NCBI GenBank assembly: GCA_964016885.1 | Contig: OZ024740.1 | Location: 390,724,001-390,788,000, forward strand | From: Eledone cirrhosa | Lineage: Eukaryota | Length of the DNA: 64,000 nucleotides | Direction: 5' to 3' | Shown here: one piece after another, positions 21,677 through 62,396 of the stretch | Layout: each line of letters opens with the position of its first letter | How positions within the stretch are numbered: position 1 is the stretch's first letter | The notes under the pieces: model-generated | Database searches by the model: none | Told to the model about the DNA's origin: nothing | What the model saw: only the letters and a program-made list of their open reading frames with translations | Translations under genes and position numbers: made by a program

Positions 21677-21839
21677 TGTAGTGTTTATATATGTATCTAG
21701 TGTATATATGGGTTATGTATATGTATATATATTTAGTGTAGTTATTAATGGTGGTTAGACCGGTTGGAGCAATAACGGTCTTATTTACGTATATATATAT
21801 ATATATGTAAATAGGAAGAAAAAGACGATTATTAGGAAG

Positions 21840-21870
<31 letters not shown>

Positions 21871-21970
21871 TTCTCTATTTTCTGGGTTAGAAAATGTTTA
21901 AAACAAAATATTTTACTTTGTGTGAAGTGTTAAGGTATTAGTTAATTTATTTATTAATTAACTATGGCAT

Positions 21971-22005
<35 letters not shown>

Positions 22006-22350
22006 TATATTTAAGAATTGTCTATTACCAGTTTCAGCATTTTATGCAATATCAAAGGGAGGAATTTGTATTGGTATAAAATGTAGGAGAGAAGATAATG
22101 TGATGTTGAACATGTTAAGGAAATGAGAAAGAATAATATTATTTACAAACAAGGTTTTTGAAGTAAAAAGAAAAAGAAAAAGAAGGGGGTGATGTGGAAC
22201 ATGACAAGGTAATGGGAAAGAAAGAATAGTGTTATTTACAGGTATAGGTCTTGAGGATAAGCAGTTCAAAAAGTGTTATTATGGCAATAATCGTCTTTTT
22301 CTTCCTATTTACATATATATATATATATTCCAACTCGTGTGCTCCTTCTT

Positions 22351-22389
<39 letters not shown>

Positions 22390-22396
<7 letters not shown>

Positions 22397-22648
22397 AAAC
22401 GTGTGAGACCCTTCGTATAGTTATATATATTTGTAAGAAGGAAAAGAATGACTTCACTTGTAGTTTGTATTATATAACAATTTAATTTTTTTTTTTTCAA
22501 TTTTATCATTTTATAACTTTGCTATGTTGCTAATTTGATCTACATAGCAAAATTATAAAATTGGAAAATTAGAAAATTGGAAAATTAAAAAAATAAATTG
22601 TTATGGAATACTACCTTCAAATGAAGTCATTCTTTTCCTTTTTTTCAA

Positions 22649-22650
<2 letters not shown>
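22390..22650. repeat. Fold-back fragment of a Penelope-type 3' end
   Basis: aaggaaaagaatgacttca ... tgaagtcattcttttcctt inverted arms; homologous to 38030-38102 and 53001-53100. Confidence 0.6.
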
Positions 22651-22685
<35 letters not shown>

Positions 22686-22813
22686 AATAGGATTTCGCTT
22701 CAAGCATAGCTTTATACAATATGTATAGAAATTTCGTATTTCGAAAGAAATACGGTTTTAGGAAGGGGGGGTGCTAACGCCCTCTGGTGTTGTCCAGCAG
22801 AAGCAAGGGGGAC

Positions 22814-22858
22814 AACCATCTATGCATTTCAGGCTTGGCTGGCCATCGTCAGGACGAT
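22814..22858 (-). ncRNA. Minimal type I hammerhead ribozyme
   Basis: Minus strand: atcgtc-CTGACGA-tggc..gcct-GAAA-tgca-TA-gatggt. Confidence 0.75.
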
Positions 22859-23075
22859 CCCTCCCACTGCTCTGCGACTGCTGGACTTGAAAACAGCCGA
22901 GATATATAGTTTTCTCGTCTGTGTAAATGAGGTGATTAATCTCATTTGCATATGAAGCTGCATAAGTTGGCTCAACTTATAATAGAAAAGAAATAAGATT
23001 TCGCTTCAAGCATAGCTTTATACAATATGTATAGAAATTTCGTATTTCGAAAGAAATACGATTCCAGTGGGATGG

Positions 23076-23119
23076 ATCGTCCTGACGATGGCCAGTCAAG
23101 CCTGAAATGCATAGACGGT
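23076..23119 (+). ncRNA. Minimal type I hammerhead ribozyme
   Basis: atcgtc-CTGACGA-tggc cagtcaa gcct-GAAA-tgca (palindromic stem III)-TA-gacggt. Confidence 0.8.
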
Positions 23120-23374
23120 TGTCTCCCTTGCTTCTGTTGGACAACACCAGAGGGCGTTAGCCCCCCCCCCCCCCCCCCCTCCCCCGCCAGTCTTCGCATA
23201 GCTACGGATTCCTAAAATCGTATTTCTTTCAAAATACGAAATTTCTATACATATTGTATAAAGCTATGCTTGAATGCTTGAAGCGAAATCCTATTTCTTT
23301 TTATTATAAGTTGAGCCAACTTATGCAGCTTCATATGCAAATGAGATTAATCACCTCATTTACACAGACGAGAA

Positions 23375-23455
<81 letters not shown>

Positions 23456-27987: not shown

Positions 27988-28037
27988 GAGCTGTACTGAT
28001 GAAGGGTAATACCCAGAAACATTAGTGTCTGCAGTTC
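27988..28037 (+). ncRNA. Type I hammerhead ribozyme
   Basis: 8-bp stem I gagctgta/tgcagttc, CTGATGA, gggt-aat-accc, GAAA, cattagtg, TC cleavage site. Confidence 0.85.
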
Positions 28038-46745: not shown

Positions 46746-48960
46746 TTTTGGAAAAGAATGAAACGAAATTTCATTTCTCACTCTTAGTACGGCTGATACT
46801 TAAATGTAAGTATGTATGTATACGTACATACATATATGTATACAGAAGTACAGTAGTATGTATATATATACATACATGCACACATATATATATATGTACG
46901 TATGGGTTTACCGAACATTTATTATAATGTTCGGTGTGTTTGTTTGTAAACAAACAAACAGCCCGAATTACGCCGTACAGTGTTCAGGCAACCATCGTCG
47001 CCCTTTTGTTCAACACTGACACAGGAACGATGTACTAGTTTCAAGCTTATTAGCTATCGTCAGCATCGTATATTGTGGCGAAATGTGAATTACTACCTCA
47101 TTCTAGAAGAACTTGGTAAAAATCATTATTTGAGATTGTATCGGGCATTTCTAATAAATATCTATGAACTTACAGCTGCAATTCATCATGATCAGCTTAA
47201 GCTCAGTTTTGTTATAGTTAACTAATAATAACAAAAAGTTATATAAATCTGGATTTCTGCATTTAATTATCGCATCACGAGAATATTTTATAATAGTAAA
47301 TATACAAGGAAGTGTAGTGTCAGTAGAAAAGTAATGAATAGCTAAAGAAAAGACTGATAATAATATATAATATTGCTAATAATATAGGTAATAATTTATA
47401 ACATAGTCATAATACCAGAAATTTAATGGGAGGGCACAGTAGATTATTAGATTATATCACTGCCGTCACTAGATATTTTATTGATTAAATGCCGGGAAAA
47501 ATACCACAGAAGGTTTCCCACAGCCAATCCACTGATCTTACATCTAAAATTAATAATAAATATTAAGTGTGTGTTATTAATAAGGTGGCATAGTTATTTT
47601 TAATGGTTAATAATACTGCCCCGATTCAGTCGTTATAATTCCTATACAATCTCGATTCAAAGCAATTGCCAATCAAGTATATCAATGGAATATTGATTTA
47701 GTGTTTAATCGGAAGCCAGGACAAAATCTACAATATCCACAAACCAAAGCTAATTTTATGAGACCTACACTTAAATGCAAATTTATTTTTAAAATCATAA
47801 ATATAATAACAACACGCATGTGAAAACAAATGTGAATCCTGTGTTCAATATAAAATGATTCTATATTCAGGTTTCTAGTCTACATCTAGAAATTTTCGAA
47901 ATATTAAGTAAATTATTTTCTGATTAAACAAAAATGCCTATGCCATCCTAATAATTTGTAGATTGATGATACAAAAATATCATTTTAACACGAGACTATA
48001 TGATCAATGTGTTGAGAAAAAAATTAATTGTGAAAATTATTTGTATTCATTTTTTATGTTTATTCAAGTAATTTCCGAAAAGCGATATTGTATTCGCATA
48101 GAGAATCGATTTTGCTACACTTGTTGTTCAGTACAATCTAATGTTAATCTTCAAATCAGTGTAGGGATAATGATAAATACGACGGCGGATATTCTATTCA
48201 ACTGAATTTATTTTTACACTGTTTACACAGATTCCAAATCAACTCTATTATTTGAGATTTTAACTGCACCACTATTATTGCAGTCTATCATTGATATTAC
48301 TACTAATATTATCTGCAACGAGCTTTGAAAAGTCAGTATAGTTCAACAGAAAGTCAAGCTATCGACACCGATCGATAATCCGTACGCATAATGCTATTCT
48401 TCGCTAAGTTAAAATTTTCTTGTGGTATTTCCGTTAGTATTTTCTCTGTATTTAATTCCACGCGTATTCTATGTTTAAACACTGAAAGATATCAAATATA
48501 TGCAAGCGCAACAATTGTATCCTTTAAAATAATCTCTAATGGGAGATGAGTAAAGGGGCTACCAAAATTATACGATGCCAAATTACTCAATTTATAGTAT
48601 TTAGATGAATTCCACTTAATTTTGAGTGACAATCTCACAGATATAAGACTCTATCGTTTCTTTCATCAAAATCACTATACACCCAGGATAAAAACTAGGC
48701 CTTCTTCAGAAAAAAGAATACAATTTGATAGTTGAACTGGCATATGATTAAATATAAATTCTGCTTTTAATTTTGTACTAAGTATTAAAATTAAAATTGG
48801 TGTATCAAATACTTATCACCATTAGCGAGTAATTTGTCTTTGGCTAATAAAGCGTTTAGAAGCTTAAAAAAAATAGTAATTTAATTCCTTCTTAAAATGA
48901 ATATTTCTCTCACTTAATGTTGAATTATAAATGTGAGTCTCGCATAATGTTCTGCTGTTT

Positions 48961-53800: not shown

Positions 53801-53819
53801 CATATATATACATACACAA

Positions 53820-55495
53820 CATAAAAGGGAAAAATACATCATACATCGAAGCACCAAAACCGACAGACTTAAAATTACGCCCCATTATTGCTGGCCCAGC
53901 CTCAAGCACACAACGTCTAAGCAACCTATTAGACATCATACTCAAGCCCCCTATGTAAAAAAGTTCCAAGCTACATCAGAGATGATATGGAATTCCTTAA
54001 CTATATCCCCCAAAAAGTACACCAGGATACAATCCTAGTCAGTTTTGATGTAATAAGCCTGTACACTAACATCCCACACGACCTAGGGATTGAAGCTGTG
54101 GCCTTTTGTATTACAAAACACTCAAGTCACATTTCAGAAAGATTCCCCAAAGAATTCATCTTGGAAGGACTTAAATTAGTATTGGAAAACAACCACTTCC
54201 TCTTTGACAACGAACTTTATCTACAAATAAAAGGAACAGCCATGGGTACCAAAGTGGCCCCTACATATGCAACGCTCGTTATGGGTCACTTAGAGGCAAA
54301 ATTATATTCCCAACTACAGATAACATTCAGTCACGACTTCGCCTTCTACATTAATAAAAACTGGAAACGTTACCTAGATGACTGCTTCATCTTCTGGAAC
54401 AGAAGCCAAACAGACCTACAAAAATGTTATTCGATCCTAAACAGGCTTCATGAAGCCATACAATTCACTATGGAATGTAACGAAAAGGAACTACCCTTTC
54501 TAGATATCCTCTTCATTAAAGAAGTGGAAAATATCATAACGGACCTATTTTGCAAACCCACTGACACACACCAATACTTAAATTTCCAGTCAGCACACCC
54601 CTCACATACGAAAAGGAACATTCCCTTCAACATGGCAAGGCGCATCTGCACTATAGCAACACACCCCGTACTACAAGAAAAAAGATTATGTGACCTGAAA
54701 AAATTCCTTAAAAAACAAGAACACCCGATGAAACTCATCAACGCAGCCATCTCCAAGGCTAAGAACATCCCAATAACAACACTGAGAAAACCAAACCCAC
54801 AACATAAAAAAGAAAACCCTGCTATCTCTTTTGTCATCACTCACAACCCAGGGAACATCAACATTGTGAAAACTGCTAAGCAGTATCTCCCGATTCTACA
54901 GCAATCTACCAAAATGAATGCACTTTTTAAAAAACACACAGATAATTTATAGCAGACGCCAAGCACCCAACCTTAAAAAACTAATTACCAAGGCAAAATT
55001 TACGACCAGCATGGAATCAATGCAAGTGACGAAATGCAAGGACCCTAGATGTGGAACCTGTGAACTCATCGAAGAGGGCAAACAGTTGTCCTTCAAAAAC
55101 CATGATAATTTCAAGGTCAATGCTAACATGAACTGCAAAACGAAAAACCTAATATATTGCGCAACATATCCACAGTGTATAGAGTATTACATTGGGGAAA
55201 CCGGAACGGGATTACATGATAGAGTCCGGGTACATAAACAACAGATTAAAGACCCCACAGTCAGAAATACCACTTTGCATCATGCGGGAAGGGAAAATTC
55301 ACAATCTTCCCTTTCTTCAAAATATGGTCGGATAACGAACATTTCCGCAGATATTAGGAAGAATTCTTCATTGAAAAATTTAAACCACTACTGAACACGA
55401 AAAAATGAATTAACACTCGGAGGTAAAATTCCATTTCACTACCCCCCCCCCCTCTTCTTATGTATACACATGAATATCTGAGTGAACGGTGAAAC
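53820..55495 (+). mobile_element. Penelope-like element RT + Cys linker + GIY-YIG, 5'-truncated and frameshifted
   Basis: LRPIIAG, SFDVISLYTNIP, GTAMGTKVAPTYA, RYLDD, LPFLDI; CKDPRCGTC, NLIY...YYIGET. Confidence 0.92.
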
Positions 55496-62341: not shown

Positions 62342-62396
62342 ACTGCTATATATATTTCGGTGACAGCCATCTTTGGCTGTGACCTCTTCAGGCAGT
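62342..62396 (-). ncRNA. Type I hammerhead ribozyme (left arm of fold-back)
   Basis: actgc-CTGAAGA-ggtcacagcc..ggctgtcacc-GAAA-tatata-TA-gcagt. Confidence 0.82.

Follow-up and report, generated by a model that had tools for sequence, protein, structure and literature searches.

Which element left two hammerhead motifs on opposite strands at positions 22685-23384 of a 64,000-nucleotide stretch of the Eledone cirrhosa genome (contig OZ024740.1, positions 390,724,001 to 390,788,000; hereafter the window), and how was it inserted? An initial annotation read the locus as a 306-nt hammerhead unit in 1.2 tandem copies plus an inverted copy, made from a circular RNA by a Penelope reverse transcriptase (RT) that switched strands.

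Structure of the locus

The locus consists of two arms. With unit positions numbered from the predicted cut site, the left arm (22685-23063, minus strand) comprises 1.2 units, from position 79 to position 151 of the next unit, and has its 3' end at an end site designated B. The right arm (23065-23384, plus strand) comprises about 0.9 unit (positions ~273 to 240) and terminates at an internal TATATA (position ~240), which is neither B nor the second end site, A. The rest of the unit beyond this TATATA was not found further on in the window. The arms meet head to head at 23064, a single base that fits neither arm, without microhomology. The stretch from site A to site B (22685-22722, minus strand) resembles the tail of Penelope-like elements (PLEs) as described in the parts of PMC11167929 and PMC8557442 covered here. 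Both 3' ends enter TA repeats with TG/CA repeats beyond them, a (CA)n(TA)n microsatellite on the left (22646-22684) and a (TA)n(TG)n microsatellite on the right (23378-23454), and these are the presumed target.

The annotated layout, A-B-C-A then B'-A'-C' (letters for segments, not for end sites), was borne out by both sets of repeats. The direct repeat (22685-22757 and 22991-23063) is identical at 71 of 73 positions with a spacing of 306, and the inverted segments are 94% (22765-22869 and 23065-23169), 99% (22902-22988 and 23298-23384) and 97% (22699-22764 and 23209-23274) identical. Between the arms, 9 of 235 sites differ, and the left arm lacks ~17 nt present in the right arm, a deletion that lies near a poly-C tract with recurrent indels. 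The 306-nt spacing is real, but the family period is ~322 nt and the left-arm deletion is private. The annotated (TA)n flanks and lack of coding capacity both stand, the longest ATG frame being 75 aa apart from a 93-aa frame that enters the TA repeat. Upstream of the predicted ribozyme of the left arm (22902-22951, minus strand) are a TATA-like box at 22902-22909 and a ATGCAAAT octamer at 22944-22951, which we take to be a possible promoter.

The two hammerhead motifs are of type I and diverge, as annotated. That of the left arm (22814-22859, minus strand, core at 22852) has its predicted cut after 22821 (AUA) and that of the right arm (23075-23120, plus strand, core at 23082) after 23113. Both cores consist of CUGACGA, a 3-bp helix II over U-U and GAAA-UGCA-UA; helix I is 7 bp, and in both arms the palindrome AUGCAU stands in for helix III, in agreement with the palindromic TGCA stem III of the initial annotation. 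A 6-bp duplex of AUGCAU with a second copy is possible (computed -6.7 kcal/mol). Rfam detected no hammerhead in the window or in 22760-23200, and the folds of the isolated 63-nt motifs did not surpass those of shuffled sequences (z 0.99 and 0.08); hence, the ribozyme is called at the level of the motif. Circular folding of three units gave z values of -3.8, -2.2 and -6.6 against 60 shuffles, without strand specificity, as the antisense strand was equal or better. Covariation across 24 units gave nothing above shuffles, and two subfamily-level changes within the predicted ribozyme preserve or restore pairing (U-G/C-G and U-U/A-U). As its two ribozymes lie on opposite strands, the locus is unable to release a monomer by double cleavage.

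The window holds further hammerhead-type motifs of unrelated families, at 62391 (-) and 62855 (+), which form a head-to-head pair, at 27996, 36045, 40904 (+) and at 47063, 58492 (-); most have TA repeats within ~200 nt.

A dispersed family of ~322-nt units

A 34-nt hammerhead core had 756 exact matches in the 3.0-Gb genome and its reversed control had none, so the core is not a chance occurrence. A 20-mer from the tail gave 2,627 genome matches with at most one mismatch (control 0), and the unit used as a query against its own genome gave 2,578 candidates. This non-coding repeat with a hammerhead motif is present at more than a thousand places in the E. cirrhosa genome. The family period is ~322 nt (median 322.5, n=44 spacings), the GC content of the unit is 42-44%, no LTR is present, and each unit carries a type I motif with the full core and the 7-bp helix I. 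These values lie within those of retrozymes, small non-coding units of 150-450 bp with GC under 50% and one such hammerhead.

Divergence is ~9% between loci and ~6% between the arms of one locus. There are two main subfamilies, and the 22685-23384 locus belongs to the one that is older on average. The two arms of a pair were of one subfamily in all 80 unambiguous pairs (3 were ambiguous), which is consistent with one source per insertion event, and age may partly account for the match (median arm divergence 4.0% vs 7.0%, p 0.0009). Outside CpG sites, the sense strand has more G-to-A than C-to-T substitutions (ratio 1.26; p 0.007 in one of six tests); A-to-G substitutions, as a scar of editing at an RNA stage, are not in excess (ratio 1.09, p 0.36). 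Before counting, six near-identical segmental copies (C1:143.4-143.8 Mb), the loci L028-L030 and L227-L228, and duplicate entries of loci were excluded.

Two fixed ends and head-to-head pairs

The least biased set of insertions came from contig C1, where the first 100 of the 756 core matches all lie; the six segmental duplicates were removed. These resolved into 82 insertions, 51 head-to-head, 29 single and 2 complex, and no simple tail-to-tail pair was among them. In a larger set, to which best-BLAST, dimer, site-B-variant and tail-selected loci were added and in which the subsets were thus selected differently, 125 of 211 insertions were head-to-head (103/168 plus 22/43).

Outer 3' ends cluster at two sites ~42 nt apart, site A ~109-117 nt and site B ~151-156 nt past the predicted cut, and two intervals amounting to 15% of the unit hold 105 of the 131 outer ends. 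A dinucleotide repeat follows 93 of the 131, the TA tracts masking any target-site duplication. Among classifiable pairs one end was A and the other B in 76 of 78 (62/64 plus 14/14), the classes being assigned from BLAST ends, which can extend into TA by as much as ~10 nt; for the 62/64 the probability under independent choice is about 1e-16. At least one end lies outside A and B in 47 of 125 pairs (39/103 plus 8/22), the 22685-23384 locus included. Inner 5' ends are distributed uniformly round the unit (206 arms, chi-square p 0.61), and 2 lay near the cut site where 7.7 were expected. As the outer ends are fixed and the inner ends uniform, the circularly permuted ends expected by the initial annotation were not borne out; the scatter is limited to the inner ends, which are truncation points only.

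By BLAST, junction overlaps of 1-4 nt were seen in 28 of 51 pairs and none in 4 of 51, whereas 55% blunt junctions are expected by chance; an exact re-count, feasible for only 66 of 106, was mostly negative for microhomology. Two unlinked pairs, L092 and L094, have identical inner junction positions (195/153) with the A and B ends swapped, which suggests a junction hot spot. Seven of 214 family loci (L024, L061, L108, L208, L240, L273 and L276) carry a Helitron-like 3' end, with a hairpin and then CTAG, at one and the same A^T (unit position 115/116), in the loop of a small palindrome at site A. This A^T is an insertion hot spot.

The fixed ends, the tail at one end and the inverted 5'-truncated copies are the insertion signature of Penelope elements. 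It is very improbable that the unit is instead a DNA-level repeat (a MITE, Helitron or satellite) inverted through recombination. Loci L173 and L209 and a 10-unit array do show later duplication or conversion between units, but fixed inverted termini are absent, and 5'-truncated arms, fixed 3' ends, the tail rule and the hammerhead are features of PLE insertions.

Another possible origin of the inverted arm is a single RT that switches strand or folds back to copy the cDNA it has just made, or that primes itself on antisense RNA, the last being a proposal of PMC3846280. An early stop during such copying would account for the one-of-each ends, and the A arm is short enough to nest in the B arm in 31 of 63 A+B pairs. 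However, 25 of the 63 fit neither nesting and by their lengths are no fold-back copies, unless later deletion produced them, and inner ends are unrelated to one another (9 of 106 within 20 nt, with an even spread), so the junctions are not hairpin palindromes. We consider this route very improbable, and the single strand switch of the initial annotation was not upheld. Given the arm lengths, two primings fit better. In L1 twin priming, two primings occur on one linear RNA; in contrast, the two Eledone arms usually span the same region of the unit.

Search for a coding parent

The genome holds many elements encoding an RT with a C-terminal GIY-YIG domain, several with the Cys linker that, in the part of PMC8557442 covered, marks Neptune/Nematis. 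These coding elements end in TA repeats 76-200 nt past a hammerhead-like motif and have two end sites, and in the one head-to-head coding case, L157, just one of the two ends is tailed. The window itself holds two remnants of such families. At 21791-22392 a coding Neptune-like family of the L161/L164 type has left its terminal repeat as a head-to-head insertion, one end tailed and the other tail-less; the hammerhead-like motif of that family has U for C in the core. At 53815-55405 is a broken Neptune-like RT plus GIY-YIG ORF that is ~95% identical to L147. Between the two Penelope-type insertions, 22435-22643 forms an inverted repeat that is AT-rich and whose 70-nt arms are 83% identical.

The unit might be the pseudo-LTR of a coding Penelope, its copies being 5'-truncated. 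The neighboring insertion at 21791-22392 is such a pseudo-LTR, and the geometry of the unit (~115 nt from cut site to A, tail ~45 nt) is like that of the coding L148 family. Against this, arms run into another unit, with 168 seamless crossings, and never into an ORF or a shared 3' UTR; no RT plus GIY-YIG ORF was attached to any examined arm. Neither a PLE peptide in 63 single 5' flanks nor PLE sequence adjoining 40 tail-selected loci read ~4 kb upstream was found, and the unit had no significant match to a coding family or pseudo-LTR among 50 of the 150 listed GIY-YIG loci (10,597 candidates). No parent was found among 25 site-B variants. The few 5' flanks common to several loci are other repeats joined at differing unit positions. 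A site-A look-alike in the coding L161 family scored like shuffles (p 0.46). The pseudo-LTR reading is thus largely refuted and we consider it very unlikely. The contrary case named in the initial annotation, a unit that occurs solely as the terminal repeat of coding Penelopes, does not apply here. What was upheld of that annotation is a retrozyme-type non-coding hammerhead unit with a Penelope-like insertion signature.

The template of the insertions

Seamless crossings by arms number 275 at the predicted cut site and 168 at the site-B boundary, the longest arms are 2.65 units, and no tail-less unit was found among the 168 interior site-B crossings. Given the seamless read-through of the ribozyme and that no coding parent was found, the template is either a circle or an uncut multimer. 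A ligated monomer circle is the predicted template, at about even odds. The other serious candidate, to which we give somewhat less than even odds, is a linear tandem transcript of a master array that stays uncut and is primed twice by the same enzyme, with a passive ribozyme and without any circle.

Several observations favor the linear transcript. In vitro, the enzyme predominantly uses uncut RNA (the part of PMC11167929 covered), the cut site shows no cluster of inner ends, and an array of ~10 units that ends at site A exists (L195:6630-9934; G000:C2, 83.92 Mb). The short palindromic helix III and the U-U under helix II predict weak cleavage according to the portions consulted of PMC4209133 and PMC7229834, and 8 of 9 Xenopus retrozyme dimers lacked cleavage (10.64898/2026.07.22.740005, in the part consulted). 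Rare variants give a mixed pattern: 12 sites were common to all three copies, another 12 only to the two repeats of one arm, and a further 12 to one repeat plus the opposite arm. They were shared at 56 of 9,255 sites within arms vs 185 of 277,134 between loci; with 19 of the 56 coming from two duplication-like loci and the three-way pattern mixed, this within-arm sharing was not counted as support for a circle.

Other observations oppose it. Only 63 same-strand dimers were found genome-wide by exact anchors, none of them chained, and one array of more than three units was found among 43 + 4 loci examined. That array, L195, has units that are star-like and 8-15% apart with signs of later exchange, and its private helix I variant is present in 9 of 9 units but in only 3 of 158 dispersed observations; hence, it is not the source of the dispersed copies. 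Moreover, 5' ends lack the pile-up expected from a fixed transcript end. Master arrays may have been lost. The tandem arrangement of retrozymes is present in the family (21 of 43 dimer loci and the 10-unit array) but not at the 22685-23384 locus, with its one ribozyme per strand. Contigs from four sequencing runs of unrecorded kind covered the unit and contained the head-to-tail joint, but genomic tandems give that joint also, so these contigs are uninformative on RNA.

Relation to known elements

In the parts of PMC7229834 and 10.64898/2026.07.22.740005 covered, non-LTR retrozymes are described as tandem units of 150-450 bp with type I hammerheads and expressed circles, and PLEs are proposed as their mobilizers. 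The Eledone family shares with the animal retrozymes the non-coding 150-450-bp unit, the GC under 50%, the single type I hammerhead per unit, tandem copies with monomers dominating and co-occurrence with PLEs (both papers, parts covered). Strong self-pairing of the predicted circular RNA, another retrozyme feature, is also seen in the folded units. In the account consulted, axolotl HHR_Amex2 likewise has U-U at the base of helix II. The family differs in having mostly arms of 0.3-1.5 units rather than long arrays and in being inserted into (TA)n as head-to-head pairs whose two outer ends are fixed, an arrangement undescribed in the portions of the retrozyme papers covered. The Eledone family is known here from genomic sequence.

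PLE insertions as described in the sections covered of PMC8557442 and PMC3846280 include partial tandems, an inverted 5'-truncated copy, a tail often at one end and a (TA)n bias. Two RT start sites bound the tail, and both strands are cut and extended (PMC11167929, part covered). Like EN+ PLEs of the Neptune/Poseidon type in the descriptions covered, the Eledone family has two fixed 3' ends, partial tandems with an adjacent inverted 5'-truncated copy, AT-rich or microsatellite targets, a 30-40-bp tail at one end and a hammerhead with a palindromic helix III. Unlike them, its unit has no ORF, is self-closed and does not match the coding families examined. Hammerhead pairs on opposite strands 100-700 bp apart are reported from Schistosoma, and circular templates for more-than-unit PLE copies are raised, in the part of PMC4209133 covered. 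The MRC1-like non-autonomous elements of Chlamys are also non-coding PLE passengers with head-to-tail multicopy insertions (PMC8557442, part covered); their 3' ends resemble those of the coding partner and canonical hammerheads are mostly missing from them, whereas the Eledone unit has a hammerhead and no matched partner. Neither a counted one-of-each rule nor a retrozyme with this footprint was found in the literature covered, which consisted mostly of open-access papers, in part and without supplements.

A two-priming model

We conclude, with a probability of about 0.8, that 22685-23384 is a pair of head-to-head arms of a non-coding ~322-nt hammerhead-motif family, which is likely a non-autonomous Penelope-like element of the animal retrozyme type and was likely inserted by an enzyme supplied in trans. 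We infer that a Penelope RT-endonuclease acting in trans, probably as a dimer, would nick both strands of a (TA)n tract. Reverse transcription would be primed at site A by one of the nicked ends and at B, ~42 nt closer to the 3' end, by the other, with RNA from one source as the template of both. Each cDNA would then proceed backwards on a more-than-unit template to a random stop, and the two cDNAs would be joined end to end to give the head-to-head pair. At 22685-23384 the left arm would have started at B; the right arm would have been primed at the internal TATATA or have lost ~200 nt later.

Several points count against this reading. No coding partner was matched in 50 of the 150 listed GIY-YIG loci, 47 of 125 pairs break the two-site rule at one end at least, and the unit lacks an Rfam match, covariation above shuffles and an A-to-G excess. 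In vitro, the start sites of the anole enzyme did not differ between strands (PMC11167929, part covered), which does not predict strict pairing. A stronger and more doubtful version is that of asymmetric two-primer integration, in which the two strands would obligatorily use different start sites, on two copies or two turns of RNA from one source, while rolling round a ribozyme-made circle, and the palindromic helix III may hold the two templates together. If true, it would unify the inverted copy of PLEs, the tail at one end and the tandem growth of retrozymes.

The ~322-nt family is a new family of the animal non-LTR retrozyme, or non-autonomous Penelope, kind. A link between retrozymes and Penelope elements has already been proposed in print with the backing of phylogeny. 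What the Eledone family adds is a counted insertion footprint, in which an ORF-less 322-nt RNA obeys the Penelope two-site rule in 76 of 78 pairs. This count sharpens a rule that was previously qualitative ("tail often at one end"), and the two-site footprint links retrozyme mobility to PLE enzymes by mechanism. The unit also provides a minimal template with which circle could be compared with linear and one primer with two in the in vitro PLE system already established.
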